Positions 9,069-29,314 of a stretch of DNA of 64,000 nt are shown here, piece by piece. A model generated the notes under the pieces. That model saw only the letters and a program-made list of their open reading frames with translations, had not been told where the DNA came from and did no database searches. Position 1 is the first letter of the stretch; every line of letters begins with the position of its first letter. Source of the stretch: Mycobacterium sp. (lineage in GTDB: Bacteria > Actinomycetota > Actinomycetes > Mycobacteriales > Mycobacteriaceae). Position numbers and translations under genes: made by a program. Where the stretch lies: positions 1,144-65,143 of the forward strand of contig JAVROT010000088.1 of NCBI GenBank assembly GCA_032162605.1, in the 5' to 3' direction.

Positions 9069-9269
9069 CACCGGACGACTAGAGCCGAGAGCCCGTGCAT
9101 CAGTGTGCGCCTGCGGACAGCCCGCGAGCCACAATCCGAGTGTCGTCGACGAGCCCTCCGGCGAGATGATCGCCGCCGCCGCCGCTTCCGGGCCCACGAG
9201 GCCGAGGCTGGCCTTCGCCTCTTCAGCGAGGCCGTCTTCGAAATCGCAGCCGGCCGCCGACCCCTTCGG

Positions 9270-9364
9270 CTTACCCCGCGGATAGGAAAACCTTTCCCAT
9301 CGACAACTGGAATCTGACTCCCCAGCGATTACGGAACAACTGCTCGATCACAACAATTCTCCTC
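9270..9364 (+). promoter_or_regulatory. conserved ~95-nt leader element, copy A (upstream of the MFS operon)
   Basis: About 80% identical by hand alignment to 18777..18870. Contains the imperfect palindrome GATAGGAAA-ACC-TTTCCCATC (9281..9301) and a CGATCAC box. Ends at an ATG in the same register as copy B. Confidence 0.7.
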
Positions 9365-9400
9365 ATGCCCAAACACACGAGGGAAGCCCAGGCCCGATGA
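9365..9400 (+). CDS. 11-codon upstream ORF (MPKHTREAQAR) overlapping the MFS start in ATGA
   Basis: Its ATG is positionally homologous to the ligase start codon of copy B. Its stop TGA (9398..9400) overlaps the MFS ATG (9397). No SD sequence upstream. Confidence 0.25.
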   Translation: MPKHTREAQAR

Positions 9401-10656
9401 AGAAGCTCATGGCACTGCACCGCAATGTCCGGGTCAGGATCGGGTTGGCGTTCGTCCACAAGTTGATCGACGCGATGATCCTCACCTTCATCGCGATCTA
9501 CCTCGCGGCCAGCGTGGGGATCGCGACCACGGGCGCGTTGATCCTGGTGTTCGCCGTGTTCGCGGTCTTCGGCATGCTGCTCGGCGGTCATCTGTCGGAG
9601 CATTGGGGCCGTCGGCCCGTCCTCATCGTCGGGGACGTCATCGGCACCGCCTTCCTGGTGCTGATGTCCGTGGCCTACTTCGCCGACTGGGGCCCGCTCG
9701 CCGTTTACTTCAGCTACGCCATCGTCAAGTTCGGTACCAACCTCGCGCTCCCCGCCAACGACTCGACCATCATCGATGTCACCCCGCCCGAGGACCGCAA
9801 GTACGTCTATACGGTCAACTACTGGGTGATCAACCTCGCGCTCGGCGGCGGCGCACTGCTCGGCGGCTTCCTCTACGGCTCGCACTTCGGCGCGGTGATC
9901 CTGGGCGGCGCGATCGGCATGGGCTTCGCACTCCTCGTCACCGTGCTGCTGGTCGCTGAGACGAAGCCGGAGGCGACCCCGGCCGCCGCACCCGCCAAGC
10001 TCCGCGGGTGGTCCCAGTTCACCGAGGGATACCGAGTGGTGCTGCACGACTCGACATTCCGCCGGTTGATCATCGTCGCCACCCTGGTGCTGACCCTCGA
10101 AGGGCAGCTGAGCACCTCCATCGGGATCCGGCTGTCGAACGACTTCGGAGTCCAGCACGTGTTCCCCTTCGGCCACGTGGACGGCGTGCAGATGCTCGGC
10201 GTGCTCAAGGCGGTGAACACCGTCCTGGTCGTGCTGCTCGCGCTCCAGATCAACACGCTGCTGCGGCGGCTGCCCGACCGGGTCCGGCTCTATACGGGCA
10301 TCCCCCTGTACGCAGGCGGCTTCGCCGTGCTGGCGATCACCGACACCGCCTGGGTGCTGCTGCTCGCCGCCGTGGTCCTGACCATCGGTGAGCTGATGAA
10401 CACGCCAGTCCAACAGGGGCTGCTAGCGGAGCTCGCGCCGGAGCAGGGCCGCCCCCGGTACATGGCTGCGTACTACCTGCACATCCGGTTTGGTCAGGTC
10501 GTCAACTCGTTGCTGATCAGCCTCAGCGCGGTGCTGAGCACCAAGGGGATGGCCGGGATCTACCTGATCTTCGGCGCCGTGATCCTCGTGCAATACCGGG
10601 CGATCCTGGCCCGCCGCCCGGCGCGTGCCGCCGCCCATGCACCGCTGTCCGTCTGA
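9397..10656 (+). CDS. MFS transporter
   Basis: 419 aa with ~12 predicted hydrophobic helices and an MFS-type loop (GHLSEHWGRRPVL). Confidence 0.85.
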   Translation: MKKLMALHRNVRVRIGLAFVHKLIDAMILTFIAIYLAASVGIATTGALILVFAVFAVFGMLLGGHLSEHWGRRPVLIVGDVIGTAFLVLMSVAYFADWGPLAVYFSYAIVKFGTNLALPANDSTIIDVTPPEDRKYVYTVNYWVINLALGGGALLGGFLYGSHFGAVILGGAIGMGFALLVTVLLVAETKPEATPAAAPAKLRGWSQFTEGYRVVLHDSTFRRLIIVATLVLTLEGQLSTSIGIRLSNDFGVQHVFPFGHVDGVQMLGVLKAVNTVLVVLLALQINTLLRRLPDRVRLYTGIPLYAGGFAVLAITDTAWVLLLAAVVLTIGELMNTPVQQGLLAELAPEQGRPRYMAAYYLHIRFGQVVNSLLISLSAVLSTKGMAGIYLIFGAVILVQYRAILARRPARAAAHAPLSV

Positions 10657-10679
10657 CTTTCCACATCTTGGAGGCAATC

Positions 10680-12023
10680 ATGTCGGCACGTTCGAACCAC
10701 GTCACCGAGGCCTACCTGGCCGAATGCGCGACTCCCAGCAGCCGGCTGCGCCACGCGCTGGCCGAGCTCGATGTGTCGGAGACCATGCGTGCGGCATGGC
10801 CGCGGCTGCTGCCCCGCCCGGTCATGGTCGACGAGGCCGAGTTCCGTGCGTTCGGCCGGGATCTCGTCACCATCTTCGACCTGGTCAGCTCACTCCCGCA
10901 GCGTTGCTTCGACGGGGACTTCGAACGGTTCCGCGCGGCCCTTGGCATCGACGACCGGCGCGGCGCCTGGATGCGCCGGCTGCTCGGCGACGGCCCGCCG
11001 CCGCTATACGGCCGGGCCGATATCTATTACGACGGCTCGTCATTCAAGCTGCTCGAGTTCAACATCGGCAGCGCGCTCGGCGGCCTGGACATGGTCGGCC
11101 CGCTGCCGAAGGCCTACCTGCGGATCCCAGCCGTCGCGGAGTTCGCCGCCGAGCACGGCCTTGGCTACCTGGACACGAGCCGGGACCTGGCCGCGGCGCT
11201 GCGCAACGCAGGTGAAGCCATCGATGCCGGCGAGCCCGTGGTCGCGGTGGTGGAGGGACCCGGCGGGATGGGCGTGTACGGACACCAGCGACGGGCGATC
11301 GCGGAGCTGCTGATCGAGCAGGGCATCGAGTGCCGGGTTGGCGAGATCGGCGACCTGACCTTCAGCGCCGGCAAACCGTACCTTCACGGCACCGGGATCG
11401 ACGTGATAGTGCGCTATTACGGGCTCGAGGAGATGCTCGCGCATCCCGACGGCGAGGCTCTCATGGAGCCGGTCTTCCGGGCCCACGAGAACGGCACCGT
11501 AGTGGTGTGGACGCCGACCAACGTGTTCGGGAACAAGGGCACGCTCGCGATGCTGTCCGAGTTCGCCGAGGACACCTCGGTGTTCTCGGCGCAGGAGCGG
11601 ACGGTCATCGAGCGGGTGCTGCCGTGGAGCCGCATGCTCGGCCGACGCGGCGCGGAATTGGATGAACGGTTCGTCTCCGAGTGCATGCAGCGCCGGGAGC
11701 AGCTGGTGTTCAAGCCAACTGGGCTGTTCGGCGGCGAAGGCGTCTTGATCGGACGGGAGGTGGACCCGCGCACCTGGCGGGAGGCGCTGGCGGCGAGCAC
11801 GCAGACCGGCTGCCTCGTACAGGAGATCGTGCAGCCGAACGTGGAGCCGGTGATCGAACCGCAGACCGGTGCCCGCTCCGAGTGGTACGCGCTGTGGGCC
11901 GCCTTCATGACTCCGGCGGGGCTCGCCGGCGGTGGCGTGCGGGCGGTACCGCCCGGTGGCAGCACCGTCATCACGATGATCAACAACACCCAGGTCCGCA
12001 ACACATGCCTCGTGACCTGCTGA
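10680..12023 (+). CDS. ATP-grasp-fold amide ligase, glutathionylspermidine-synthase-like (putative)
   Basis: GGAGG lies 5 nt upstream of the ATG at 10680. Motifs GRADIYYDGSSFKLLEFNIGSALGG and LVFKPTGLFGGEGVLIG resemble the GspS / circularly permuted ATP-grasp families. Confidence 0.65.
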   Translation: MSARSNHVTEAYLAECATPSSRLRHALAELDVSETMRAAWPRLLPRPVMVDEAEFRAFGRDLVTIFDLVSSLPQRCFDGDFERFRAALGIDDRRGAWMRRLLGDGPPPLYGRADIYYDGSSFKLLEFNIGSALGGLDMVGPLPKAYLRIPAVAEFAAEHGLGYLDTSRDLAAALRNAGEAIDAGEPVVAVVEGPGGMGVYGHQRRAIAELLIEQGIECRVGEIGDLTFSAGKPYLHGTGIDVIVRYYGLEEMLAHPDGEALMEPVFRAHENGTVVVWTPTNVFGNKGTLAMLSEFAEDTSVFSAQERTVIERVLPWSRMLGRRGAELDERFVSECMQRREQLVFKPTGLFGGEGVLIGREVDPRTWREALAASTQTGCLVQEIVQPNVEPVIEPQTGARSEWYALWAAFMTPAGLAGGGVRAVPPGGSTVITMINNTQVRNTCLVTC

Positions 12024-12040
12024 GCAAGAGGAGTAGCCCG

Positions 12041-12715
12041 ATGACCCGATTCGTCGACCTGACCCACGGCTTCTACGACGGAATGCCGTCCTACCCCGCC
12101 GACTGGTTTCCGAAGTTCGCCAGCGAGCGCACGATGACCCCGGAGACCGACCCTTACGGCACCAAGCGCACGTTCTCCTATCTGCACGTGTTTCCGCACA
12201 ACGGAACGCACATGGAGTACCGGCTGCATTTCTTCCCCGGGGCGGAGGGGATTGACGAGGTGCCGCTGCACACCCTGATCGGCCGCGCCTGCGTCGCCGA
12301 CCTGTCCGACAAGGGCGAGCTGGAACCGGTCACCGGCGAGGACCTTGAGCGGACGCTGCGCCCGGTGTGGCGGGAGGGTGACCGGCTGCTGGTTCGCACC
12401 GACTACCTGCGGAACAACTGGGGCCGCCCCGACTACTGGGACGTGCCGCCCTACCTGACGCCGTCAGCCGCGGAATGGGCCATCGACAACGGCGCCAGCC
12501 TGTTCGGTCTGGACTGCCTCACCGAGCGGCCCGGCGACGCCGAGTCTCCCGTGCACCACGCGCTGCTGGCGGCCGGCATCCCGCTGCTGGAGTACGTCAC
12601 CAACATGCACGAGCTCACCAGGTCGGTCGTTCAGCTCGTTGCGCTGCCCATGAAGGTGGCCGGCGCCGAGGCGGCTCCCACCAGGGTCATCGCCATGGAG
12701 GACACCGATGACTGA
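12041..12715 (+). CDS. cyclase-family protein (kynurenine formamidase-like metal hydrolase)
   Basis: HNGTHMEYRLH motif (compare HxGTHxDxPxH), plus GLDCLTERPGD and VHHALLAAGIPLLEY. Confidence 0.8.
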   Translation: MTRFVDLTHGFYDGMPSYPADWFPKFASERTMTPETDPYGTKRTFSYLHVFPHNGTHMEYRLHFFPGAEGIDEVPLHTLIGRACVADLSDKGELEPVTGEDLERTLRPVWREGDRLLVRTDYLRNNWGRPDYWDVPPYLTPSAAEWAIDNGASLFGLDCLTERPGDAESPVHHALLAAGIPLLEYVTNMHELTRSVVQLVALPMKVAGAEAAPTRVIAMEDTDD

Positions 12716-13889
12716 ATCGGGCCGGCCCGCGGTTGCGCTCGCTTCCGCGACCGATGACGCCGCGGTGCCCGGTGTGTTGCACCGGCTGCTCGCGCTGCTC
12801 GACGAGCCGCTGGCCGGCCTGCGTCCCGGCGCCGAGGTGCTCATCAAGCCGAACATGTTCCAGACCGCCCCTGGATTTCACGTGAGCCCGGCGCTGCTGG
12901 CCGCCATTGCTCGCGCGGTCGCCGAGCACGGGGCCCGGCCGGTGATAGCGGAGCGTACGCATGCCATCTACGAGATCTTGAATGACCACGAGGCCGCCAA
13001 GTACGCTCGCGTGGTCAGCTTCGATGACCTGCCGTTGCGCATCACCAACATTCCGGGCGCGACGTCGCTTCGGGTGCCGATCGCGGTGCCCGAGATGATC
13101 GAAGACTGCGACTACTTCATCGGGGTGCCGCAGCTGCGCACGCACGCGAGCGTCGTCTACTCCAACGCGATGAAGAACCTGGTCGGGTTGTTGCCCGGCT
13201 ACACGACCCGAATCGTGCACATGGCTGGGGTCGACGAGTCCACCGTGGACCTCAACCTGATGCGCCCGCAGGATCTGGTCATCTGCGACGGAACCACGGT
13301 GATCGAGGGCAACTACCCGATGGACGGGCAAGCGCGCTCGGTGGGCTTCCTGGCGGCCAGCCGAAACGCGGTCGCCCTCGACGTCGCGGTCGGCGTGCTG
13401 GCCGGCTTCGACCCGCGCAGCGTCGCCTATCTGCGCGACGCGCACCAGCGCGGGATGGGCCCACTCGCGCTCGAGGACATCGACCTGCGTGGCACGGCGC
13501 TGACGGAGCTCGCCTTCGACATGGTCAAGGCGCCGGTCGAGATCGTTCCGCCGCGTGCCGGTATCCACGTCTACGCCGAGCATGCCTGCCCGGCGTGCAG
13601 TCGGTTCGTGGCCGCGGCCATGCGTGCCCTCGCCGATGAGCTGTGCGCTTGGGACGGAGAGATGACGATCGTCTCCGGTCCGCAGGTGCAGATGCCGCCG
13701 CTGCGCGGTGCGGTGATCCTCGTCGGCAACTGCCTCTACGAGAGCCGCGATCTCGGCATCTTCATCGAGGGTTGCCCACCACGCGCGATCCAGCTCGCCG
13801 CGTTCCGGTACGCGATGGGCAAACCGGTCGGCGACCATGAGCGCACCCAGTTCCGGGTGCCGCCACGGCTGGCGGGTGTGGCGGGATGA
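12708..13889 (+). CDS. DUF362-family protein with LarA-like motif spacing (candidate NPN-dependent enzyme)
   Basis: VLIKPN..., VPQLRTHASVVYSNAMKNLVGLLPGYTTRIVHMAG and ICDGTTVIEGN. The C-terminal third has CPAC...C...NC...GCPP. 8-nt and 4-nt overlaps with the flanking genes. Confidence 0.75.
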   Translation: MTESGRPAVALASATDDAAVPGVLHRLLALLDEPLAGLRPGAEVLIKPNMFQTAPGFHVSPALLAAIARAVAEHGARPVIAERTHAIYEILNDHEAAKYARVVSFDDLPLRITNIPGATSLRVPIAVPEMIEDCDYFIGVPQLRTHASVVYSNAMKNLVGLLPGYTTRIVHMAGVDESTVDLNLMRPQDLVICDGTTVIEGNYPMDGQARSVGFLAASRNAVALDVAVGVLAGFDPRSVAYLRDAHQRGMGPLALEDIDLRGTALTELAFDMVKAPVEIVPPRAGIHVYAEHACPACSRFVAAAMRALADELCAWDGEMTIVSGPQVQMPPLRGAVILVGNCLYESRDLGIFIEGCPPRAIQLAAFRYAMGKPVGDHERTQFRVPPRLAGVAG

Positions 13890-15259
13890 CGATCAGTACG
13901 GTCACCTCGCCCGGTTCGGCGTTGCCCGCCGGATCGCGGCTGTACCGCCATGTCATGCCGCTGGCGACGCCGATGAACCCGGTGGCGGCGGCCGCCGCGT
14001 TGCGTACCGCCGGTCGGCTCATGCTCACCGCCGGATCCGAGGGTCGCAGCGCAACTCTGGCGGTGGGCGAGCTCGCCGTCCTCTCCCATCCGGGGGGTGC
14101 GGGCCACGCGCCGCTGGCCGACGCCGTGGATTTTCTTGCCGCGCTGGATGTTCCAGTGGGCACCCCGCCTGCCGAGACGGCCTGGTACGGCCTGTTGGGC
14201 TATGACGGGGTGCGGGACTTCGAGCGATTGCCCTGCCGTCACCCGGCGACCGATCGGCCGGTGTACGAGTTCTTCCTGCCCGAGACACTGGTCCAGTTCA
14301 CTGACGGGTATGGGCAGGTGATCGGCCGCGGTCCGTCAGCCGCCGCCGCACGCGCCGCGGCCGAGCGGACCGCGAGGAGGTTGGCGGGGCTGACCGTTGC
14401 GCCGCTCGGCGTCGTCGCCGTGGGTGCCGGCCGGTTCGGCGCCAGCTACGAGGAGTACGCCGCCGCGGTCGACCGCGCAAAGCACCACATCCTCGACGGC
14501 GACGTCTTCCAACTCGTGCTGTCCATCGCCTGGACCGCACCGGCCACCGTGGACGGTCTGGCGGTCTTCGAGCGACTGACGGCGATCAATCCGTCCCCAT
14601 ACCACTTCTGGTACGCCGGGCCGCGGTTCGAGGCGGTCGGCGCCTCACCGGAACCGTGCTTGACGCTGCACGACGGCCGGGCGCTCATCCGTCCGCTCGC
14701 CGGAACCCGACCTCGCGGCCACGACGCCCTCGCCGATCTGCGCGCCGAAGCCGACCTGCGCTCGTCGGCCAAGGAACTGGCCGAGCACCGGATGCTCGTC
14801 GATCTCGCGCGCAACGATCTGGGCCGGGTGTGCCGGCCGGGCAGCGTCTCCGTCGAGCGGCTGATGGACGTGGAGCGCTACTCCCACGTGATGCACCTGA
14901 CCTCGGACGTGCACGGCCAGATCCGCGGCGACCTGCGAACCGACGAACTCATCCGGGCAACGTTCCCGGCGGGCACCATGACCGGCACGCCCAAAGTGCG
15001 CGCCATGGAGCTCATCGACGAACTAGAGCCGACCCGGCGCTGGCTGTACTCAGGCGCGGTCGGGTCATTCGGACTGTCCCACGTCGACTTGTACCTGACG
15101 ATTCGCAGCATGGTGCTGTGCGACGGAGAAATTCGCCTGCAGGCGGGAGGTGGCATCGTGCACGACTCCGAGCCGTCGGCCGAGTACGCCGAATGTCTGG
15201 CGAAGCTCGGCTCGAGTGCCCGGGCCCTTGGGATCACGATCAAGGGGGCCGCGGCATGA
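13886..15259 (+). CDS. chorismate-utilising enzyme, component I (anthranilate/aminodeoxychorismate/ADIC synthase family)
   Basis: FQLVLS, NPSPYHFW, RPLAGTRPRG, AEHRMLVDLARNDLGRVC, FPAGTMTGTPKVRAMELIDELE, GGGIVHDSEP. Confidence 0.85.
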   Translation: MTISTVTSPGSALPAGSRLYRHVMPLATPMNPVAAAAALRTAGRLMLTAGSEGRSATLAVGELAVLSHPGGAGHAPLADAVDFLAALDVPVGTPPAETAWYGLLGYDGVRDFERLPCRHPATDRPVYEFFLPETLVQFTDGYGQVIGRGPSAAAARAAAERTARRLAGLTVAPLGVVAVGAGRFGASYEEYAAAVDRAKHHILDGDVFQLVLSIAWTAPATVDGLAVFERLTAINPSPYHFWYAGPRFEAVGASPEPCLTLHDGRALIRPLAGTRPRGHDALADLRAEADLRSSAKELAEHRMLVDLARNDLGRVCRPGSVSVERLMDVERYSHVMHLTSDVHGQIRGDLRTDELIRATFPAGTMTGTPKVRAMELIDELEPTRRWLYSGAVGSFGLSHVDLYLTIRSMVLCDGEIRLQAGGGIVHDSEPSAEYAECLAKLGSSARALGITIKGAAA

Positions 15260-15858
15260 TCTGCGTCATCGACAACTACGACTCGTTCGTATACAACCTC
15301 GTGCAGTACGCGGGAGATCTCGGCGAGGAGTGTGTCGTATACCGCAACGACGAGGTAACCGTCCAACGGGTGGCCGACCTTGCTCCCGACTTGATCCTCA
15401 TCTCGCCGGGTCCCGGTGATCCGGCCGATGCAGGCATCTCCATCAAGCTGATCCAGCGGCTGGGCCACGACTTCCCGATTTTCGGAGTATGTCTCGGCCA
15501 CCAAGCGATCGGCGCCGCGTTCGGCGCCCGGATCCGGCACGCCGCCGCGCCGATGCACGGTAAGTGCTCGGAGATCAGGCACGACGGAATGGGCGTCTTC
15601 GCGGGACTGCGGAACCCGCTGACGGTTGCGCGCTACCACTCCCTGGTGATCGAGGCCGACACGCTGCCGGCCGAACTGGTGGCGACCGCCTGGTCGCGGG
15701 AAGGCGAGATCATGGGGGTTCGGCACCGGACACTGCCGATCGAGGGTGTGCAGTTCCACCCCGAGTCGCTGTTCACCGAACAGGGCGTCGACATCGTCGG
15801 AAATGCGGTGCGTGGCATCCGCAGCCGGCTGGCCGCGGAGGGGGTGGGGGCCGCATGA
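15256..15858 (+). CDS. glutamine amidotransferase, component II (TrpG/PabA-like)
   Basis: MICVIDNYDSFVYNL, GVCLGHQAIG (catalytic Cys), VQFHPES. ATGA overlap with component I. Confidence 0.9.
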   Translation: MICVIDNYDSFVYNLVQYAGDLGEECVVYRNDEVTVQRVADLAPDLILISPGPGDPADAGISIKLIQRLGHDFPIFGVCLGHQAIGAAFGARIRHAAAPMHGKCSEIRHDGMGVFAGLRNPLTVARYHSLVIEADTLPAELVATAWSREGEIMGVRHRTLPIEGVQFHPESLFTEQGVDIVGNAVRGIRSRLAAEGVGAA

Positions 15859-16691
15859 ACGCCGACCGGCTGCTGGCCCGTCTTCGATCACTCGACGGTG
15901 TGGCCGTCGCGTTTTCCGGTGGTGTCGACTCCACCCTGGTGCTGGCCGCAGCGTTGCGGGCGCTGCCGGCGAACCGGGTGCTGGCGGTGATCGCCGACTC
16001 GCCCAGCCTCGCCCGCACCGAACTCGTCGACGCGCGGCACGTTGCCGCCGATCTGGGCGCGGAGCTGGTCGAAGTGCGGGTCGCCGAGCTCGAGATTCCC
16101 GGCTACCGTGCGAATGCGGGCAACCGCTGCTATTTCTGCAAACACACCGTGCTGAGCGCCGTCAGCGAACTCGCGGTCCGGCGGGGTATCGCGCACGTGG
16201 CCACCGGTACGCATGCCGACGACCATCGGGCCGTGCACCGACCCGGTCTGCGTGCCGCCCGTGAACTGCACGTGGTCGAACCACTGGCCGATGCCGGGCT
16301 CGGCAAGCGCGAGATCCGGATGCTGGCGGCCGCGTGGTCGTTGCCCGTCGCCGACAAGCCGGCGACGCCGTGCCTGGCCTCGCGTATCGCGGTGGGAGTA
16401 CCCGTCTCCATCGGTCGGCTTGGCCTGGTGGAGCGCGCCGAGATCGCGGTGCGAGCGCGGCTGGCCGGTGTCGGCGTGCAACCGCGTGATCTCCGAGTTC
16501 GGTTGCTCGGCGATGGATTTGCCATTGAGCTGGACCGGACGACGCACGCCGCGATGGAGATGTTGCCGGGGTTCACTGCCGAGGTTCTCGCTGCTTTGAA
16601 TGGCCTCGGCCTGACCGGCGCCGGACGGGTGGGGACATACCGCTCTCCCACACTCGCGCCTCCCATCGGTGACACCGCGGTCACTTCGTGA
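15855..16691 (+). CDS. larE: LarE-type PP-loop ATP-dependent sulfur transferase
   Basis: AFSGGVDSTL PP-loop. CYFCK plus PCLASR gives three Cys in total. ATGA overlap with the amidotransferase gene. Confidence 0.85.
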   Translation: MNADRLLARLRSLDGVAVAFSGGVDSTLVLAAALRALPANRVLAVIADSPSLARTELVDARHVAADLGAELVEVRVAELEIPGYRANAGNRCYFCKHTVLSAVSELAVRRGIAHVATGTHADDHRAVHRPGLRAARELHVVEPLADAGLGKREIRMLAAAWSLPVADKPATPCLASRIAVGVPVSIGRLGLVERAEIAVRARLAGVGVQPRDLRVRLLGDGFAIELDRTTHAAMEMLPGFTAEVLAALNGLGLTGAGRVGTYRSPTLAPPIGDTAVTS

Positions 16692-16737
16692 GATCGTCAG
16701 CGAGACACCGGTGCCCCGCACAGCTGAAGGCGGAACC

Positions 16738-18668: not shown

Positions 18669-18776
18669 GCTATGCCGTCGACCCGGCCGCGGTGATGACA
18701 GTCGCTAATTCGGTTGTGCCGCAGGATGTTCAGTGCCGAACCTGAGGCAGCCGCAGCACATCGAACGAGCCCGGTG

Positions 18777-18870
18777 CTTACCCCACGGATAGGAAAACCT
18801 TCCCATCGACACGTGGAATCTGGCTTCCCGGCGATTACGCGAGCACGTCGCGATCACCACCATTTCAGTC
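18777..18870 (+). promoter_or_regulatory. conserved ~95-nt leader element, copy B (upstream of the ligase operon; within the divergent larC intergenic region)
   Basis: Aligns with 9270..9364. Palindrome GATAGGAAAACCTTCCCATC at 18788..18807. Same CGATCAC box. Ends at the ligase ATG (18871). Confidence 0.7.
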
Positions 18871-20544: not shown

Positions 20545-20561
20545 TTCGATTGGGAACCGCC

Positions 20562-21596: not shown

Positions 21597-21608
21597 GGCA
21601 GTGACCCC

Positions 21609-23594
21609 ATGTCCACTGAGAAGCTACAGCTGGCAATCGTCGGATTCGGCCCACGCGGCTTGTCGGTCGCGGAACGCCTCTGCGCCAACGTCGAGTCGCT
21701 CCTGCCGGACGGTCGGGAACTCGTCATCCACCTCGTCGACCCGTACGTGTTCGAGGGCGGCCAGGTATGGCGAAGCACGCAGGACCAGGCGCTGTTGATG
21801 AACACGGTGGCCTGCCAGGTAACCATGTTCGTCGACGACACCGTCGACTGTGCCGGGCCGGTGGTGAGCGGGCCGAGCCTCTACGAGTGGGCCCGCTCGA
21901 TCGCCCTGATCGGCATCCCGAACGTACCGGAGGCGGTTCGCGCCGAAGCCGCCACGCTCGGGCCGGACGATTATCCGTCTCGGGCGTTCTACGGGAGTTA
22001 CCTGCAGTGGACGCGCGACCGGATCATCTGGTCGGCGCCCCCGGCGGTCAGCTTCATCTCGCACCAGGCGACCGCCGCCGACGTTCGGGATACCGCGCCT
22101 GGTTTGCAGGAAGTCGTACTGGACTCCGGGGAGACCATCGGCAATCTGGACGCCGTGGTGCTCGCGCTCGGTCACATGCCGCATCGTCTCGGCAAGTCCG
22201 AGGCGGCCCTCGGCCAGTTCGCCGACCTGCACGGCCTGCGGTATGTCGCACCGAGCAACCCGGCCGACGTGCCACTGGACGCGATCGGAGCGGGTGAGTT
22301 GGTGATCTTGCGCGGCATGGGCCTCAACTTCTTCGACTACATGGCGCTGTTGACCATCGGTCGTGGTGGCACGTTCACGCGCGAACTCGGCGGCACCCTG
22401 AGCTACCTGCCGTCGGGTCGGGAACCGCGCCTGGTTGCGGGATCACGGCGTGGAGTGCCCTACCAGGCTCGCGGCAAGAATCAGAAGGGGCCGTCCGGCA
22501 GGCACGAGCCGCGGTACCTGACCGCCGAGGTGATCGAGCGGCTGCGAGCCCGCGCCGACGCCGGGGTACCCGCAGGCTTCCGGCGGGACATCTGGCCGAT
22601 GATCGACCAGGAAGTCCGCACGGTGTACTACGCGACGCTGGTGCGGGAGCGTCGCTGCACCTGCGACGCCGAGGAGTTCACCGCCCTGTTCGCCGCGGCG
22701 GAGCGCGCGCTGGTGCCGACCCTCGGAGATCCTCTGGCCATCCAGGAGAGCGACGCCCAGCGCACCGTGCTCAGCAAGTTCGACATCTATCCCGACGAAA
22801 GCTGGGACTGGCGCAAGATCGCGGCGCCGTTCGTCGACGACGATCTCCGCTCGACCCAGAGCTTCCGCAGCTGGCTGCGGTCCTATCTGGACAGTGAAGT
22901 CCGGGAGGCCGGGAAGGGGAACGTGGCCGGTCCGCGCAAGGCCGCCCTGGATGTGCTGCGGGACCTGCGCAACGAGATCCGGTTGCTGGTCGACCACGGT
23001 GGCCTTTCCGGCGACTCCTACCGGGACGAACTGCAGCGTTGGTACATGCCGTTGAACGCCCACCTCTCCATCGGGCCACCGGCCGAACGCATCGAGCAGT
23101 TCGCCGCGCTGGTGGATGCCGGCGTGCTCGAGGTCCTCGGCCCGGACCTGCGCGTCGACTGCTCGGACGGACACTTCGTCGCGTACTCCCGAACCTGTCC
23201 CGACCTCACGGTGCGGGCTACCACGCTGATCGAGGCGCGCCTGCCGGAAGTCGACCTGCACCGGACGACAGATCCCCTGCTGCGGACGCTGCTGGACCGG
23301 GGCGAGTGCCAGCCGTACCGCATGCCGATCCGCGGCGGCGGTCAGTACGTGGCAGGTGGTGTCGCGGTCACCCGGCGGCCGTACCGGCTGCTCGACGCTG
23401 CAGATCGCCCGCACGCGCGGCGTTTCATGTTCGGCGTGCCCACCGAGTCGGTGCACTGGGTGACCGCGGCGGGCATCCGTCCCGGCGTCAACTCCGTGAT
23501 CCTCGGTGATGCGGACGCCATCGCCCGGTCCTGCCTGCGACCGCTGCTGCTCGCCGATGATCGCGGCGACCACCGGACCGAGACATCGGCGTGA
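21609..23594 (+). CDS. FAD/NAD(P)-binding protein (CreE/FzmM-like flavin N-oxygenase candidate)
   Basis: 661 aa. N-terminal LAIVGFGPRGLSVAERL dinucleotide-binding motif and a second GxG (ILRGMGLNFFD). The size and layout match the FAD-NAD(P)-binding family found next to fumarase-fold lyases. Confidence 0.7.
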   Translation: MSTEKLQLAIVGFGPRGLSVAERLCANVESLLPDGRELVIHLVDPYVFEGGQVWRSTQDQALLMNTVACQVTMFVDDTVDCAGPVVSGPSLYEWARSIALIGIPNVPEAVRAEAATLGPDDYPSRAFYGSYLQWTRDRIIWSAPPAVSFISHQATAADVRDTAPGLQEVVLDSGETIGNLDAVVLALGHMPHRLGKSEAALGQFADLHGLRYVAPSNPADVPLDAIGAGELVILRGMGLNFFDYMALLTIGRGGTFTRELGGTLSYLPSGREPRLVAGSRRGVPYQARGKNQKGPSGRHEPRYLTAEVIERLRARADAGVPAGFRRDIWPMIDQEVRTVYYATLVRERRCTCDAEEFTALFAAAERALVPTLGDPLAIQESDAQRTVLSKFDIYPDESWDWRKIAAPFVDDDLRSTQSFRSWLRSYLDSEVREAGKGNVAGPRKAALDVLRDLRNEIRLLVDHGGLSGDSYRDELQRWYMPLNAHLSIGPPAERIEQFAALVDAGVLEVLGPDLRVDCSDGHFVAYSRTCPDLTVRATTLIEARLPEVDLHRTTDPLLRTLLDRGECQPYRMPIRGGGQYVAGGVAVTRRPYRLLDAADRPHARRFMFGVPTESVHWVTAAGIRPGVNSVILGDADAIARSCLRPLLLADDRGDHRTETSA

Positions 23595-23667
23595 CCGCCC
23601 GAAGGCGACCGCGAGTGAGGATCGCAGCGAGGGACGAGCGAGGACCGGAGCGAGTGGGAGCGGAGGC

Positions 23668-25065
23668 ATGACTATGGACTATGGAATTCTGGCGCCCGCA
23701 TGGGCGGCGACGGGAGCGGCTGACCTCGTCGACGACAACGCATTGCTGACAGCCATGCTCGCTACGGAAGTCGCCCTGGCCGAGGCGCAGGCCGAGTTGG
23801 GCGTGATTCCGGCCGGCGCAGCGAAGGCGATCAGGGTCGCCGCCGTGCCCGCCGCCATCGACCTTGCAGTGGTGGCTGCGGGAGTGCGGGAGACGGCCAA
23901 CCCCGTCGTATCGTTCGTCGAGCAGCTCACCGCTGCGGTCCGGTCCGTCGACACGTCCGCCGCCGAGTATGTACACCGCGGCAGCACCAGCCAGGACATC
24001 CTGGACACCGCACTGACCCTGCTGTGCGCGGCGACGCTGAACCGAATCGAAAGCGACCTACTGGCGTGCGCCGACAGCCTGGCTGGACACGCCGATCGAC
24101 ATCGCGCGACACCGATGGCCGGGCGCACCCTGACCCAGCACGCCGTGCCCGTCACCTTCGGGCTGAAGGCGGCCACCTGGCTGCATCTGGTGCTCGACGC
24201 CGTGGAGCGGGTGCGCCGGACCCGCGCGGCGCTGCCGGTCTCGCTGGGCGGCGCGGCGGGCACGCTTGCCGCATACCACCAGTACGCGGTCGACACCGGC
24301 GATCCGGTTGACGCGACGCTGCGCTTGCCCGAGTTGGTGGCCCGTCGCCTTGGGCTGGCCGAGCCGACCCTTCCCTGGCACGGCATTCGCACGCCCCTGG
24401 CCGACGTTGCTGCGAGCTTGATGGTCACCACCGGAGCGCTCGGCAAGCTGGCCGCCGACGTCCTGGTGCTCACCCGGACCGAGATCGGGGAGGTCACCGA
24501 GGAACCGGCGCCGGGACGGGGCGCGTCCTCGGCCATGCCGCAGAAGCACAACCCGGTGTTCTCGACGCTCGTCGCGACCGCGGCCCGCCAGCTGCCACCG
24601 ATCGCCCTCGTGCTGTTCGGTTCCATGGCCGTGGAGGACGAGCGGTCTTCGGGTGGGTGGCATGCCGAGTGGCAACCTCTGCGGGAGTGCCTGCGCATCG
24701 GTGCCGGTGCCGCCGCCAATGCCGCTCACCTCGCGGCATCGCTTCGGGTCTCACCCGAGGCGATGGCGGCGAACCTGCGGCTGACCCGTGGCGCCATCGT
24801 CTCCGAGCGCGTCAACGTGGTTCTGGCGCCGTTGCTCGGCAAGGCCAAGGCCAAACAACTGCTGACCGAGGTGACCGCGGCGGCCGAGCGGGACGGTGCC
24901 GACGTCGCCGACCTGCTCGCGGTCGCGCTTGAGGAGGCCGGAGTAGCTGTCCCCAACGTGCCGGGACTGTTCGATCCGTCCGGCTACACCGGGGTGTCCG
25001 GTCCGCTGGTCGACCGGGCGCTCCAGCGTTTCGACGATGTCTTGAAGGAGATCTCCCATGGCTGA
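23668..25065 (+). CDS. fumarase/aspartase-superfamily lyase (CreD-like nitrosuccinate lyase candidate; PcaB/PurB-like)
   Basis: GSTSQDILDT, GRTLTQHAVPVTFG and the signature GASSAMPQKHNP. GGAGG lies just upstream of the ATG at 23668. Confidence 0.8.
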   Translation: MTMDYGILAPAWAATGAADLVDDNALLTAMLATEVALAEAQAELGVIPAGAAKAIRVAAVPAAIDLAVVAAGVRETANPVVSFVEQLTAAVRSVDTSAAEYVHRGSTSQDILDTALTLLCAATLNRIESDLLACADSLAGHADRHRATPMAGRTLTQHAVPVTFGLKAATWLHLVLDAVERVRRTRAALPVSLGGAAGTLAAYHQYAVDTGDPVDATLRLPELVARRLGLAEPTLPWHGIRTPLADVAASLMVTTGALGKLAADVLVLTRTEIGEVTEEPAPGRGASSAMPQKHNPVFSTLVATAARQLPPIALVLFGSMAVEDERSSGGWHAEWQPLRECLRIGAGAAANAAHLAASLRVSPEAMAANLRLTRGAIVSERVNVVLAPLLGKAKAKQLLTEVTAAAERDGADVADLLAVALEEAGVAVPNVPGLFDPSGYTGVSGPLVDRALQRFDDVLKEISHG

Positions 25066-26198
25066 TGTCGCCCCGCTGGAGTTCGACTGGCAGCGTGCAC
25101 GGCCGATCCCGGCCAGGCGGCGGGCAGAACTGCTCGCGCTGCCGGGGTTCGGCGACACCTACTCCGATCACATGGTGACCGTGCGGTGGAATGCCGAGCT
25201 GGGCTGGCACGACGCCGGGATCGGCCCGCTTGCCGCGTTCGCACTGCACCCCGCCACCATGGCGTTGCACTACGGCCAGACGGTTTTCGAGGGCTTGAAG
25301 GCCTTCTGGCGCCCCAACGGTCACCGGGCCTTGTTCCGGCCCGTCGACCATGCCCGCCGATTCGCCCGCTCGGCGCGCCGGATGGCCATGCCCACGCTGC
25401 CCGAGCAGGACTTCGTCGCGGCATTGGAGGCGCTGCTGCGGGCCGACGGTGACTGGGTACCTCGCACTCGAGGACACAGCTTCTATCTGCGGCCGTTCAT
25501 GATTGCGTCGGAGGCGCAGCTGGGCAACCGCCCCGCCGAGGAGTACCTGTTCGCCGTGATCGGCGGCCCGGCACGGCCCCCATCCGCGGAGCCGAAGCCG
25601 ATGCGGTTGTGGGCAGCCACCGAGTACATCCGTGCGGCGCCGGGCGGTACCGGTGCGGCCAAGTGTGGCGGCAACTACGGCGGCTCCTACATCGCCCAGC
25701 GACAGGCCGCGGCCAACGACTGCGACCAAGTCGTGTGGCTGGACGCGCGGGAGCGCCGGTACATCGAGGAAGCGGGCGGTTCCAACCTGTTCTTCGTGGA
25801 GTCGACCACCGAAGGCCCCCGCCTGCGCACGCCTCCGTTGAGCGGAACCCTGCTGGCGGGCGTCACCCGGGACACGATCCTGCGGTTGGCGGGACGACTC
25901 GGTTACCCGGTCGCCGAGGAGCCGCTCACGCTCGACGAGTGGGAGCAAGGGCTGCCGAGACGGGCGTATCACCGAGACCTTCGCGTGTGGCACCGCCCGG
26001 GCCATTGCCCCGGTCGGGCACGTGGTCTCCGCGCAGCGGGACTGGCCGGTGGGGGACGGCACTGCGGGGCCGGTCACGTCGCGGCTGCTGAAGGCATTAC
26101 TCGACATCCATTGCGGCCAGACTCCAGACGAATTCGGCTGGATACGTCTCGTCGACACCTACGGCGAGGCCTCCACACCCCGCCTCGAGGAGGGATGA
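25058..26198 (+). pseudogene. class IV (IlvE-like) aminotransferase, frameshifted near 25946-25968
   Basis: Frame 1 gives DHMVTVRW, FEGLKAF, YLRPF, GGTGAAKCGGNY ... DEWEQG. The conserved C-terminus ITETFACGTARAIAPVGHV...GWIRLV is in the +1 frame and ends at the TGA at 26196..26198. Confidence 0.75.
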
Positions 26199-26201
26199 TC
26201 C

Positions 26202-26810
26202 ATGTCCACGACTCCCAAGGTCGACTTCTACTTCGACCCGGCCTGCCCCTTCGCCTGGATCGCCTCCCGGTGGATTCTCGAGGTGGAACACAGGCGGAAA
26301 ATCGATCTGCGGTTCCGGGTGATGAGCGTGTCCGTGCTCAACGAGGATCGGGAGATCTCCGAGTGGTACCGGGACTTCTGCGACCGTGCGTGGGGGCCCG
26401 CGCGGGTCTGCATCGCCGCCACCCAGCACCATGGCGAGGAGGCGCTGCGTCACCTCTACACCGCGCTCGGCACCCGAATCCACAACGGGCGCAACAAGAA
26501 CTACCCGGAGGTGGTCGGGCAGGCCCTCGCCGAGGTGGGCCTGCCAGCCGAGCTCGCCGAAGCGGCTGACGGGACCGACTACGACGAGGTCCTGCGCAAG
26601 AGCCACGCGGCGGCGCTGGAACCCGTCGGTGCGGATGTCGGCACCCCGACGATCCACATCGACGGCATCGGGTTCTTCGGGCCGGTGCTGACCGCCATAC
26701 CGCGGGGCGTCGAGGCGGCACGCCTTTTCGACAGCGCCAGGACGCTGGCCGCCAACCCTCATTTCTTCGAGCTGAAGCGGGCTCGCTCCGGCGACCTGAA
26801 CTACGACTGA
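26202..26810 (+). CDS. DsbA-family oxidoreductase, Rv2466c-like (mycothiol-dependent reductase family)
   Basis: [53 protein letters not shown] and PHFFELKR. Collinear with M. tuberculosis Rv2466c as I recall it. Confidence 0.85.
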
Positions 26811-26828
26811 CAGAACGGACGTGTGCAC

Positions 26829-28085
26829 ATGAAACGTATCGGGATTGTGGAGTCGAACCGCTCCGGATCCGGGTTCGACACCTTACGGGCGGCCAGGAAG
26901 CTGGGTTTGCACGTCACCTTCTTCAGCTGCGGGCTGGATCGCTACCACGCGACGCCCGGTGGCACGGAGGTATTGCGCACCTGCGTCGACGAGGTCGTTT
27001 CCTGTCCGACCCACGAGCTGGCGCCGTTGCTGGCGGCGGTGAAGGAGGTCGACGCCACGCATCCGCTCGACGCGTTGCTCTCGGTCGCCGAGTACGAGGT
27101 GGTTCAGACCGCCGAGGTCGCCCGCCAGCTCGGCCTGCCCGGCCCGGATCCGGACGCCGTCCGGATCGCGCGCAACAAGGCCGACCAACGACGGCGCTGG
27201 GCCGAACGCGGCGTGCCCATCCCGGCATTTCGCGCCGTGACCACGGCTGAGCAGGCGGCGCGGGCCGCCGAGGAGATCGGGCTGCCGTGCGTGGTCAAGC
27301 CCGTCGACGAGACCAGCGGGGCGAATGTCGTCCGGTGCACGACCGTGCCCGAGGTGATCGACGCCTTCTCGGCGGTGCGGTCCGAACCGACCAACCGCCG
27401 CGGTCAGCCCCGCCATCCAGAGGTGCTCGTCGAGGAATGCCTGGTCGGCTTCGAGGTCAGCGTGGAGGTTCTGGCCGAGGCCGGATCCGTCCGCGTGCTC
27501 GGGGTGACCGACAAGCTGGTCGGGGGCGGCAACCGGTTCATCGAGCTCGGACACAGCTTCCCGACGGCACTGCCTGCACGGATTCGGGACGAGCTGGAAC
27601 AGGCCGCGGTGGCCGCGACCATGGCGGTGGGCTTCGACCTCGGCATCGCGCACGTCGAGCTCAAGTACACCGCCACGGGTCCCACGCTGATCGAGATCAA
27701 TCCACGGCCGGCCGGTGACCAGATCACCGAGCTGATGGACCGCAGCCTCGGGCTGTCCACCATGGAGCTGTTGATTCGCCAGTACCTTGGCGAGTTCGTC
27801 GGCGCCATCGAAGCGGATCCGGTACGGGGCGCGGCGATCCGGTACCTCACCGCACCTGCCGGTGTCGTGAGCAGCGTGACCGGATTGGAGATCGCCGCTG
27901 CCGTGCCCGGGATCTGCGAGGCCGTGGTGTCCATCGAGCCCGGTGGGCGGATCAACCCGTTGCGGGTGAACGAGGACCGGATCGGCCACGTCCTGGCCAC
28001 CGCCGACGATCCATACCTGGCCGGCCGGATCGCCGAGGCCGCGGCCCAGCAAATCGAGGTGCGAGTCCTAGGAGTAGCGACATGA
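26829..28085 (+). CDS. ATP-grasp domain protein (carboxylate-amine / L-amino-acid ligase type)
   Basis: KADQRRRWAERGVP, GLPCVVKPVDETSGANV, LVEECLVGFEVSVE, AHVELKYT and LIEINPRPAGD. Confidence 0.8.
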   Translation: MKRIGIVESNRSGSGFDTLRAARKLGLHVTFFSCGLDRYHATPGGTEVLRTCVDEVVSCPTHELAPLLAAVKEVDATHPLDALLSVAEYEVVQTAEVARQLGLPGPDPDAVRIARNKADQRRRWAERGVPIPAFRAVTTAEQAARAAEEIGLPCVVKPVDETSGANVVRCTTVPEVIDAFSAVRSEPTNRRGQPRHPEVLVEECLVGFEVSVEVLAEAGSVRVLGVTDKLVGGGNRFIELGHSFPTALPARIRDELEQAAVAATMAVGFDLGIAHVELKYTATGPTLIEINPRPAGDQITELMDRSLGLSTMELLIRQYLGEFVGAIEADPVRGAAIRYLTAPAGVVSSVTGLEIAAAVPGICEAVVSIEPGGRINPLRVNEDRIGHVLATADDPYLAGRIAEAAAQQIEVRVLGVAT

Positions 28086-29314
28086 CGAACTTGGTGATGG
28101 TGATGCCCTACCAGGCATACATACGGAAGGCCCAAGCCGAAGGGTTCCGGATCCACGCGATCTGGGACCCCGCCGAGGCCGAGCGACTGTTCGGTGCGGA
28201 ATCCGCCCAGTACCTCCGGGACGTCGAGGCACTCGCCGACGGCTTCCGGTTGGTGGACTTCACCGATCACGCCGCCTATGCCGACGCGATCCGCGCGGCT
28301 GTGCGAGAGACCGACGCCGACCACGTCTGGCACGTCGGCTGCGAGGAATCGATGATGCTCGCCTACGAGGTAGCCGACGATCTGGGAAGAGCGGTCAACT
28401 CACCGCGGTCGGTCGAGCTGCTCAACGACAAGCTCGCCATGCGCACCCTCCTGCGCGACAAGGGCGTCTCCGCGGTCCGGTTCGCCATCGCGGAGCACTG
28501 GTCCGACGTGGCGGCACTGCTGGCGGACTTCACGCTGCCCGTAGTCGTCAAGCCGACCACGTTGTCCGCCAGCCGGGGGACCTACTTGCTCACCGACCCC
28601 GCCGACTTGCCTGCTTGGGGCGAGTCGCTGACCGCCTACCAATATGACGGGCCGCTGCTCGTCGAGGAGTACCTGCGCGGCCCGGAGTTCAGCGTAGAGA
28701 CGTTGACAGTGCGCGGCGAGCACCACGTCATCGGCGTCACCCGCAAGCTGCTCGGCCCGCTGCCGCACTTCGTGGAGCGGGGGCACCTGTTCGGCGCGGC
28801 GGCCACGGCGGAGACCAGCCGGGTGGCCGCCCTCGCGGTGGAACTGCTCGACGCCGTCGGGTACCAGTGCGGCCCGGCGCACACTGAGATCATCCTCACC
28901 GCGGACGGGCCGCGGATCGTGGAGTCGCAAGCTCGGCTCGGCGGGGACAAGATCCCCGACATCATCCAGATCGCCCGGGGTTTCGACATCAAGCGGGCGA
29001 TGTTCGGCGCCCTCGCCGGCAGGGCGCCCCGGCCGGCGAGGGCGCAGTCCATCGGGCACATCGCCTACCTGAGCTTCCCCAGTGGGGTTCTTCGGTCGGT
29101 GTCCGGCCTCGACGAGGCCCGCGGGCTGGATTTCGTCGCCACCCTGAACTTCCCGTTCGCGGTCGGGGACGTGCTCCCGGAGACGGTGAGCTCGAAGACC
29201 CGGCACGGCTTCGCGATCCTCACCGCGTCCGAGAATGCCGCGCAGGCCTTGGCTCGCGCGGACCGGGTGCGCGAACTGATCAGGGTCGAGGTGTCGGCAC
29301 CCGGTTGCGAATGA
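28082..29314 (+). CDS. ATP-grasp domain protein (carboxylate-amine ligase type), second copy
   Basis: ATGA overlap with the preceding gene. DKLAMRTLLRDKGV, LPVVVKPTTLSASRG, LVEEYLRGPEFSVE, AHTEIILT and IVESQARLGGD. Confidence 0.8.
   Translation: MTNLVMVMPYQAYIRKAQAEGFRIHAIWDPAEAERLFGAESAQYLRDVEALADGFRLVDFTDHAAYADAIRAAVRETDADHVWHVGCEESMMLAYEVADDLGRAVNSPRSVELLNDKLAMRTLLRDKGVSAVRFAIAEHWSDVAALLADFTLPVVVKPTTLSASRGTYLLTDPADLPAWGESLTAYQYDGPLLVEEYLRGPEFSVETLTVRGEHHVIGVTRKLLGPLPHFVERGHLFGAAATAETSRVAALAVELLDAVGYQCGPAHTEIILTADGPRIVESQARLGGDKIPDIIQIARGFDIKRAMFGALAGRAPRPARAQSIGHIAYLSFPSGVLRSVSGLDEARGLDFVATLNFPFAVGDVLPETVSSKTRHGFAILTASENAAQALARADRVRELIRVEVSAPGCE

Follow-up and report, generated by a model that had tools for sequence, protein, structure and literature searches.

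An orphan gene cluster of Mycobacterium sp. that brings together nitrite and diazotase genes, ATP-grasp ligases and nickel-pincer cofactor genes

Pathways that combine a supply of nitrite with a diazotase are known from the biosynthesis of cremeomycin, avenalumic acid, p-coumaric acid, tasikamide, spinamycin, penzonemycin, nybomycin and triacsin. The pzm cluster holds genes for a DAHP synthase, an anthranilate-synthase-like enzyme, an isochorismatase, a dehydrogenase, CreD, CreE, CreM, a major facilitator superfamily (MFS) transporter and an N-acetyltransferase, and the 2,4,3-DAHBA module of the nyb cluster, whose diazotase NybO acts on 3-hydroxyanthranilate, is built likewise; most characterised diazotase substrates are of the o-aminophenol type. 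To our knowledge, all characterised pathways with this logic belong to polyketide synthase (PKS), non-ribosomal peptide synthetase (NRPS) or simple aromatic contexts, and most come from Streptomyces. Here, a related block of 17 genes (9397-29314) is described from a 64,000-nucleotide stretch of Mycobacterium sp. DNA (assembly GCA_032162605.1, contig JAVROT010000088.1, positions 1,144 to 65,143), referred to below as the window, in which the genes for nitrite and diazotase chemistry stand beside ATP-grasp ligase genes and the lar genes for the cofactor nickel-pincer nucleotide (NPN). The block can be read as an orphan, horizontally mobile actinobacterial cluster for a small, amide-linked, chorismate-derived arylamine product that gains or passes through an N-N bond. 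For the full chain of steps our confidence is slightly better than even, and it is higher for the general class of a chorismate-derived, nitrite-modified and ATP-grasp-assembled metabolite.

With pzm and nyb, the cluster shares the dedicated DAHP synthase, the anthranilate-synthase-like aminase, CreE/CreD, a CreM-type diazotase and the MFS transporter, while an N-acetyltransferase is present in close relatives of the window. Unlike them, it has neither an isochorismatase nor a dehydrogenase of the short-chain dehydrogenase/reductase (SDR) type, with PF04199 and DUF362 proteins in those positions, and it carries three ATP-grasp-type ligases, instead of acyl, polyketide or Japp-Klingemann steps, as well as larB, larE and larC. 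Its hosts are also different, being Mycobacteriaceae, Pseudonocardiales and Geodermatophilales rather than Streptomyces. The cre, ava and cma clusters likewise have an aspartate-nitrosuccinate (ANS) pair and an ANL-fold diazotase. However, their starting compound is 3,4-AHBA from GriH/GriI-type enzymes, and a type II PKS takes part in ava and cma, whereas the cluster described here would start from chorismate and has no PKS. The author of the earlier note on this DNA, made from the sequence alone, knew of no characterised cluster that combines ANS genes with lar genes, and none was found in the searchable literature. Our full-text search, with subscription-only literature outside its scope, returned no paper in which ANS or diazotase genes stand together with ATP-grasp ligases or with lar genes.

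Gene families were assigned by Pfam and NCBIfam scans of long open reading frames (ORFs) with high GC at third codon positions (GC3), and all cluster genes except larC lie on the plus strand. The ANS pair proposed in the earlier note has strong homology behind it. The CreE-like flavin-dependent L-aspartate N-hydroxylase (21609..23594) matches PDB entry 8CP2, an L-aspartate N-hydroxylase (PMC10404684), over its full length (640 bits, E 3e-191). The gene of the CreD-like nitrosuccinate lyase (23668..25065) starts 73 nt past CreE, and the nitrosuccinate lyase model NF052556 is its best match at 534 bits, short of the equivalog cut-off of 650 and with the next family at 360. By this strong homology, the two enzymes would release nitrite from aspartate.

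The ANL-superfamily gene (18871..20544), previously taken for a generic ligase, is placed by the NCBIfam and PDB scores in the clade of ATP-dependent diazotases, among relatives of CreM, AvaA6, CmaA6 and Tri17. Its top NCBIfam model is the 3-aminoavenalumate diazotase AvaA6, which reaches 337 bits where the best CoA-ligase model has 159, although this score is far under the AvaA6 equivalog cut-off of 975. Among PDB entries, 9XB8 scores 719 bits (59% identity), 8ZTZ/9IJF 267, Tri17 (8TF7/9BQ0) 255 and FadD13 92; 8ZTZ, deposited as 'Putative AMP-binding enzyme', is presumably CmaA6. The entries 9XB8 and 9XBS were deposited as 'Fatty-acid-CoA ligase FadD' and are uncited in the literature searched, and they probably represent an unpublished diazotase structure. 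We considered whether 9XB8 signals an already characterised orthologous cluster, which was rejected, as the identity is 59% here and 92% to a Microbispora protein. Within this cluster type, ANL orthologues have 74% identity or more, set apart by a gap from the general diazotase clade at 54-60%, and the ANL gene shares its operon with the DAHP synthase, CreE and CreD genes in 10 of the 11 sequences (ten loci and the window) that have both ANL and the first ATP-grasp gene. Because the ANL protein falls in the diazotase clade, the nitrite would be used for enzymatic formation of an N-N bond.

A chorismate-derived amine supply, as proposed in the earlier note, is borne out at the family level by a dedicated type I-beta DAHP synthase (20550..21596; NF006421, 388 bits against a cut-off of 335), a TrpE/PabB-like chorismate-aminating subunit (13886..15259; PF00425, E 5e-84) and a TrpG/PabA-like glutamine amidotransferase (15256..15858; PF00117, E 1e-54; TIGR00566 over its cut-off). 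Immediately before the TrpE-like gene lie a member of the PF04199 'cyclase' family (12041..12715; E 6.8e-26), likely a metal-dependent hydrolase with the motif HxGTHxExxxH, and a DUF362 protein (12708..13889; PF04015, E 2.3e-32), a distant member of the LarA superfamily and a candidate NPN user. The cyclase gene stands directly upstream of DUF362 in all 37 testable loci, and the pair, which usually adjoins TrpE/G-like genes and a type I-beta DAHP synthase, occurs in at least six cluster architectures. In clusters of the window's type its partners are the ANS and diazotase genes. In Streptomyces they are an aldehyde dehydrogenase, an SfmD-like peroxidase, an ATP-grasp ligase and an MFS pump; in Brevibacillus a LuxE/LuxC/SDR trio with three ATP-grasp ligases; in Tengunoibacter the same trio with one such ligase; and in Catenulispora a methyltransferase, an MbtH protein and an NRPS. 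Partners of these kinds were also seen in metagenomes. As the same pair recurs in such different clusters, it looks like a module for the supply of a building block. No isochorismatase or SDR domain was detected by Pfam and NCBIfam on any cluster gene, and the cyclase and DUF362 genes fill the slots of the isochorismatase and the dehydrogenase in the 3-hydroxyanthranilate modules of penzonemycin and nybomycin. Since the layout matches pzm and nyb slot for slot, PF04199 and DUF362 could be functional replacements of these two enzymes, a proposal made by position.

An NPN-dependent enzyme had been postulated in the earlier note without a gene being named for it. The DUF362 protein is the only candidate, and we infer the link from its relation to LarA. 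DUF362 and LarA_N belong to one Pfam clan. In a Foldseek search with an AlphaFold model of the protein (33 homologues, mean pLDDT 85), the best 18 PDB matches were all of the LarA family (E 1.7e-7 to 3.5e-4), the TM-scores being modest (0.33-0.41), as would be expected of two domains joined by a flexible hinge. Judged by this model, DUF362 has the LarA fold and is a distant LarA relative. In LarA, whose sequence and numbering were checked against 5HUQ, Lys184 binds and tethers NPN, His200 is a nickel ligand, Arg75 binds phosphate, and His108 and His174 are catalytic (PMC11770544). The most conserved stretch of the DUF362 subfamily, DCDYFIGVPQLRT-H146-ASVVYSNAM-K156-NLVGLLPGYTTRIV-H171, has its LarA counterpart in ADLLISEGFIES-H174-FFAGFSGGR-K184-SVLPGIASYKTIMAN-H200, so that T-H146-x9-K156-N..PG..H171 parallels S-H174-x9-K184..PG..H200, with H171 lying 1-4 positions off LarA H200 in alignments whose hhalign scores are non-significant. 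In the DUF362 set P0361-P0509, the near-invariant positions are KPN (47-49), H146, K156-N157, H171, D181, D194, C294-x2-C297 and C356. About 4,600 representative clusters match the DUF362 protein of this cluster at E<=0.001. In the literature search no paper assigned a function to DUF362, which appears there merely as an outgroup in LarA trees.

The genes larE, larB and larC were listed in the earlier note, and all three products exceed curated cut-offs. LarE, the sulfur insertase (15855..16691; TIGR00268, 237 bits against a cut-off of 150), is followed by the LarB carboxylase/hydrolase (16738..17436; NF033503, 270 bits against 175). LarC, the nickel insertase (17415..18668; PF01969, E 1.5e-130; LarC1 199 against 90, LarC2 134 against 50), is encoded on the minus strand and overlaps larB by 22 nt, in agreement with the convergent arrangement noted before. 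LarE has exactly three cysteines, C92, C95 and C173, the pattern of the tri-Cys [4Fe-4S] type of LarE (PMC11796402). A 4-nt overlap couples larE translationally to TrpG, and a larE homologue stands behind TrpG in 16 of the 21 loci with enough sequence; four of those 16 have other architectures, with 46-69% identity. On the other hand, larB and larC accompany larE only in clusters with the window's gene order and in one divergent relative. In one architecture (L066, 2013-8161), the larE-like gene behind TrpG is followed by genes for a carbamoyltransferase and a heavy-metal P-type ATPase.

Described NPN clients are so far the LarA superfamily, NphT with its aldo-keto reductase fold and an ornithine cyclodeaminase. 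Similarly to the lactate racemase system, LarB, LarE and LarC are all encoded here, a gene for a LarA-fold protein precedes larE in the operon, and the His-x9-Lys of DUF362 takes the position of LarA His174/Lys184. The differences are that the partner carries PF04015 instead of PF09861/PF21113, that R75 and H108 are not conserved, that three family-wide cysteines are added, and that the context is secondary metabolism instead of lactate or hydroxyacid metabolism. NphT (Nat Chem 2026, PMC13524815) is comparable in having larB, larE and larC beside the candidate, in the lack of a canonical LarA close by and in the support from conserved Lys and His residues, but it is an aldo-keto-reductase TIM barrel acting on sugar substrates; that study left out LarA-related folds on purpose and does not mention DUF362 (PMC13524815). 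Neither a LarA/DUF2088 protein nor an aldo-keto reductase is encoded in the 64-kb window, and no LarA-like ORF was found in the related loci either. A search of the window for another NPN client also returned none. Taken together, we consider it possible, at best an even matter, that this DUF362 protein uses NPN.

The conservation of the whole block was followed in two scans. A genome scan with the ANL protein as seed gave 12 loci, Mycolicibacterium pyrenivorans, two Mycobacterium isolates, Pseudonocardia asaccharolytica, Geodermatophilus chilensis and a Microlunatus metagenome-assembled genome (MAG) among them, with cluster proteins 80-94% identical to those of the window, while a metagenome scan with a DUF362 alignment as seed gave 43 further loci. 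The order of the window or a single-row order was found in the 12 genome loci and in about 30 metagenome loci, so that co-oriented, syntenic orthologues are present in more than 40 loci, in Mycobacteriaceae, Amycolatopsis, Pseudonocardia, Geodermatophilus and soil metagenomes. Such recurrence is more than chance and agrees with the co-localised biosynthetic cluster proposed in the earlier note, and the scattering of orthologues that would have spoken against it was not seen. The window's own ANL protein is present in several JGI metagenomes, and the right flank is common to the M. pyrenivorans locus only.

Two gene orders occur. In type A, that of the window, the genes from MFS to TrpG are followed by larE and larB, with larC on the opposite strand, and then by the genes from ANL to the second ATP-grasp, while type B is a single row running from ANL to the second ATP-grasp and on from MFS to TrpG. 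In some type A loci, a copy of the promoter module discussed below is separated from MFS by a remnant of about 43 codons that comes from the 3' end of the second ATP-grasp gene and is fused to the ATG of the module (L028 1343-1609, L030, and L031 2247-2513). Since this remnant precedes MFS, the sequences suggest that type A was derived from type B by rearrangement. In close relatives, genes for a TauD-family dioxygenase and a GNAT acetyltransferase, with a module copy of their own, stand between larB and larC (L001 6938-8429, L005 839-2361, L002, L009, L027, L031 and L032); both are absent from the window at this junction, where L004 has an HNH (DUF222-type) endonuclease gene. An element of the IS605-type TnpB/OrfB kind, recognised by sequence motifs, is located between the aminotransferase and Rv2466c-like genes in L003, L007, L008 (10449-12863) and L010, all of type B and including the Pseudonocardia and Geodermatophilus loci. 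In P. asaccharolytica (L008), G. chilensis (L010) and the Microlunatus MAG (L012), the cluster proteins are 80-90% identical to those of the window, and the same range applies between the Mycolicibacterium, Pseudonocardia and Geodermatophilus loci. This high identity across orders, the TnpB element, the HNH endonuclease gene and the tRNA-Thr gene near the cluster in the window point to recent horizontal transfer across three or four actinobacterial orders, the other possibility being contaminating contigs in those assemblies.

Furthermore, the two transcription units of the window share an element of about 100 bp. Its first copy (9269..9369) lies upstream of the MFS operon and the second (18776..18876) upstream of the ANL operon, both on the plus strand and about 77-80% identical. 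By nhmmer, the window and related loci together contain 33 copies, as many as four in one cluster and all of them on the coding strand. The conserved blocks are GCTTACC, GGAnAGGAAAnCCTTnCCC, GGAATCTGGCTTC..GCGATTAC and GATCAcnACnATT, followed at a fixed distance by an ATG, with a hexamer nACnAT 7 nt before that ATG and a GGAAAnCCTTTCC palindrome and two more conserved blocks upstream. The ATG is the start codon of the ANL gene (18871 in the window), the TauD-family gene, the MFS gene (L034) or an FMN reductase gene (L004); elsewhere it starts the ATP-grasp remnant before MFS or a short upstream ORF, which in the window has 11 codons (MPKHTREAQAR*, 9365..9400, plus strand) and a stop codon overlapping the MFS start (ATGA). 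In L004 (20342-20953), the extra copy stands past the last ATP-grasp gene, before a gene for an NADPH-dependent FMN reductase (PF03358) that the window does not have. A sigma-70 consensus promoter was sought in these elements and not found. A hexamer of the nACnAT type 7 nt before the ATG fits a promoter of leaderless mRNAs under the mycobacterial -10 rule, and the element is, from its sequence, probably a shared promoter/operator module yielding such mRNAs. That the duplication arose through insertion of the lar genes was considered and rejected, as single-row loci such as L006 and L035 also carry a second copy before MFS. Thus, the duplicated leader of the earlier note is a real duplication, but probably of a multi-copy promoter/operator module rather than of a structured RNA leader.

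In regard to assembly of the product, the ATP-grasp ligases and MFS pump that had been listed for this locus were found again by Pfam. The two ligases at the end of the second operon (26823..28085 and 28082..29314) are of the L-amino-acid-ligase (LAL) type, both with PF18603 (LAL_C2) and PF13535 (ATP-grasp_4) and the first also with PF18130 (ATPgrasp_N), and show weak matches to BacD and DdaF models. The third (10680..12023) is probably a circularly permuted, GspS-like ATP-grasp ligase, in which LLEFN precedes KPTGLxGGxGV in the alignment consensus, as in the permuted order. PF03738 matches it with 26.7 bits, below the cut-off of 29.3, there is no NCBIfam or PDB match, and the assignment stays weak because the best hit of a profile search of the PDB, the ligase Cp1B, has E 0.2. 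The MFS efflux transporter (9397..10656) matches PF07690 with E 1.3e-30. NRPS-independent dipeptide antimetabolite clusters of the bacilysin, dapdiamide and tabtoxin types are built on L-amino-acid ligases. They resemble the present cluster in an LAL-type ATP-grasp ligase with LAL_C2, an MFS exporter, a shikimate-derived amino-acid-like unit and a GNAT protein, here in the relatives; we know of none with ANS, diazotase or lar genes.

The class IV aminotransferase gene is present as described before, but the ORF as first read (25058-26569) is a frameshift artefact, and the enzyme is of the IlvE/BCAT type rather than PabC. With a +1 frameshift at 25947/25948 taken into account, the gene spans 25058..26198 and scores 322 bits against a cut-off of 307 with NF009897, over residues 17-298. 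An extra A is present within 25937-25954 (GAGCAAGGG, against GAGC-AGGG in four relatives), and the intact enzymes of L001, L002, L004 and L022 have 371-373 aa, their genes ending 3 nt ahead of the Rv2466c-like gene; the frameshift is either that of a pseudogene or a homopolymer sequencing error. A route to PABA through PabA/B/C was rejected, since the class IV enzyme scores above the cut-off of the branched-chain (IlvE type II) model while PabC models barely match it. As the longer ORF is an artefact, the second operon has two true overlaps and not the three counted earlier. Apart from this, the gene order and the gap limits of 46 and 73 nt given in the earlier note agree with the recomputed junctions, which are +23, +17, -8, -4, -4, -4 and +46 nt from MFS to larB and +5, +12, +73, -8, +3, +12 and -4 nt from ANL to the second ATP-grasp gene. 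The Pfam and NCBIfam scans also agree with it in finding no NRPS or PKS domains in the cluster.

A pathway can be proposed from these genes. The DAHP synthase would raise the flux through the shikimate pathway and the TrpE/TrpG-like pair would, by family, aminate chorismate. By analogy of gene position, the PF04199 hydrolase may then strip the enolpyruvyl group from the aminated chorismate derivative, and abstraction of a hydride by DUF362 may aromatise the product to an aminohydroxybenzoate of the o-aminophenol type, most likely one such as 3-hydroxyanthranilate. The hydride acceptor would probably be NPN, supplied by LarE and LarB from the same transcript and by LarC from the convergent gene. 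CreE and CreD, on strong homology, would convert aspartate to nitrite, with which the ANL enzyme, as a family member of the ATP-dependent diazotases, would diazotise the arylamine. The Rv2466c-like DsbA-fold thiol-dependent reductase (26202..26810; PF22234, E 1.1e-85) could, speculatively, handle diazo or nitroso species. The two LAL-type ligases and the GspS-like ligase would, as their families suggest, attach amino-acid partners, one of them perhaps, again speculatively, delivered by the BCAT-like aminotransferase, and the MFS pump would export the product. Each transcription unit would be driven by its copy of the module, probably as leaderless mRNA. A catabolic or detoxification cluster was considered as well and set aside, since the dedicated DAHP synthase, the ANS genes, the ligases and the exporter indicate synthesis.

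It is also possible, though in our view unlikely, that the cluster is real while its lar genes are passengers at a rearrangement-prone junction, making NPN for an unrelated LarA homologue or another client elsewhere in the genome, and that DUF362 works with another cofactor, at an Fe-S or metal site of its three cysteines. Several observations favour this. In Amycolatopsis and on a metagenome contig, single-row sister clusters have TrpG as their last gene and the next 8 kb are free of lar genes, which are thus accessory and not a constant part of the cluster. Five loci, Amycolatopsis, Brevibacillus and Catenulispora among them, have none within about 4-8 kb downstream of TrpG, and the cassettes of Streptomyces and Tengunoibacter are likewise without lar genes. 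The larB-larC junction itself varies, with TauD and GNAT genes, the HNH endonuclease gene of L004 or, in the window, nothing. H146, K156 and H171 of DUF362 are invariant also in lar-less loci, and this His/Lys/His triad and the three cysteines are nearly invariant in 134 distant DUF362 representatives, so that the triad may reflect a function unrelated to NPN. Three distant DUF362 genes that were sampled have no lar neighbours, for which reason a general association of DUF362 with lar was rejected. The sequence of C294, C297 and C356 hints at a site for another metal or an Fe-S cofactor, which is not described in the searchable literature. In addition, phmmer, hmmsearch and hhalign give no significant link between DUF362 and LarA, no PDB sequence matches, and the protein matches PF04015 only, with no hit to the LarA domains PF09861/PF21113; the relation therefore rests on fold comparison and inspection of the motif. 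LarA R75 aligns with Q52, H108 has no His counterpart, and a net oxidation through NPN would require a hydride sink. Yet larE is translationally coupled to TrpG, its homologues of only 46-69% identity recur behind the cassette in three other architectures, which would not be expected of a passenger, no other plausible NPN client is present in the 64-kb window, and DUF362 is the sole LarA-fold protein there.

Against the full biosynthetic chain there are further points. The proposed chemistry of the cyclase and DUF362 is read from gene position. The TrpE-like enzyme may place the amino group as ADC synthase does or as anthranilate synthases do, its PDB scores to the two being equal, and its PIxGT motif reads PLAGT, with Ala. 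The window copy may be impaired, considering its frameshifted aminotransferase and the absence of the TauD-family and GNAT genes of its relatives. One locus (L011, 10001-20834), which keeps a diazotase-like ANL gene, the DAHP synthase, the aminotransferase, both ATP-grasps, MFS, the GspS-like ligase, the cyclase and DUF362, has no CreE and CreD. The Rv2466c-like gene is missing together with them, which ties the thiol reductase to the nitrite module, and the same co-variation would suit a reductase in a different outcome, in which diazotisation serves deamination or substitution, as in the avenalumic and p-coumaric acid pathways, N2 is lost and a peptide-like product without an N-N bond is formed. 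We regard this as improbable, even though AvaA6, the top family model of the ANL protein, is the diazotase of such a pathway and actinomycetes are reported to have more than 100 ava-related clusters without a known function (PMC10777205). The score of 337 bits lies well below the AvaA6 cut-off, no homologue of the denitrifying enzyme AvaA7/CmaA7 was identified, with no reference sequence compared, and deriving an amine from chorismate just for it to be lost again has no obvious benefit here. Least probable of all is that the element of about 100 nt acts as an RNA leader, for instance a riboswitch or attenuator responding to a metabolite of the pathway and regulating the two operons post-transcriptionally. 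Its place directly upstream of start codons, its conservation up to the ATG and the short upstream ORF that follows before MFS in the window would be in line with such a role. However, no Rfam family matches, RNAalifold predicts only -4.4 kcal/mol and 8 pairs with no compensatory changes in 20 diverged copies, the copies have no Shine-Dalgarno sequence, the distance to the ATG is fixed whatever gene follows, and the nACnAT hexamer fits a leaderless promoter.

The surroundings of the cluster correspond to the flanks described in the earlier note. The window has about 67% GC, and the 9.3-29.3 kb block is slightly richer in GC than the DNA to its right. To the left, on the minus strand (7150-9197), a CO-dehydrogenase flavoprotein gene (FAD_binding_5/CO_deh_flav_C) is followed by an ORF of 391 aa, low in GC3 and with COXG as its C-terminal domain, consistent with the degraded coxG-like gene noted there. 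The right flank (29280-39300) has lower GC (0.63-0.65) and contains genes for a Ser/Thr kinase, an FHA-HTH protein, tRNA-Thr (32245-32320), two family-5 solute-binding proteins and a 1057-aa adenylate cyclase/AAA/TPR regulator, and it may be the junction of a genomic island. Further to the right (50944-63177), two P450 genes, several SDRs, a zinc-ADH, a SnoaL-like protein, a TetR regulator and an aldehyde dehydrogenase look like degradative or tailoring genes unrelated to the cluster.

In comparison with what was known, the logic of nitrite and diazotase and the biosynthesis of NPN are both established, and the more novel but less certain part is DUF362 as a nickel-pincer enzyme of secondary metabolism. 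In about 15% of surveyed genomes, larB, larE and larC occur without larA (PMC11796402), and the search for the missing nickel-pincer enzymes is active, NphT having been described in 2026. A gene for a LarA-fold DUF362 protein two genes upstream of larE, within one operon, provides a concrete and cheaply testable candidate. The far-reaching version, that DUF362 (PF04015) is a second NPN-using branch of the LarA fold which, together with PF04199, aromatises an aminated chorismate derivative by nickel-dependent hydride transfer and so feeds a new ATP-grasp-assembled N-N metabolite, is tentative and seems to us rather doubtful. If true, natural-product biosynthesis would gain its first nickel-pincer enzyme, the isochorismatase/dehydrogenase route to aminohydroxybenzoates would have a non-orthologous replacement, and the use of NPN could extend to thousands of DUF362 proteins. 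The cluster couples diazotase chemistry to three ATP-grasp ligases in mycobacteria and rare actinomycetes, from which a new N-N scaffold is expected, and the repeated promoter/operator module offers a handle for its activation. Finally, the reaction of the cyclase and DUF362, once solved, would annotate many orphan clusters, in at least six architectures.

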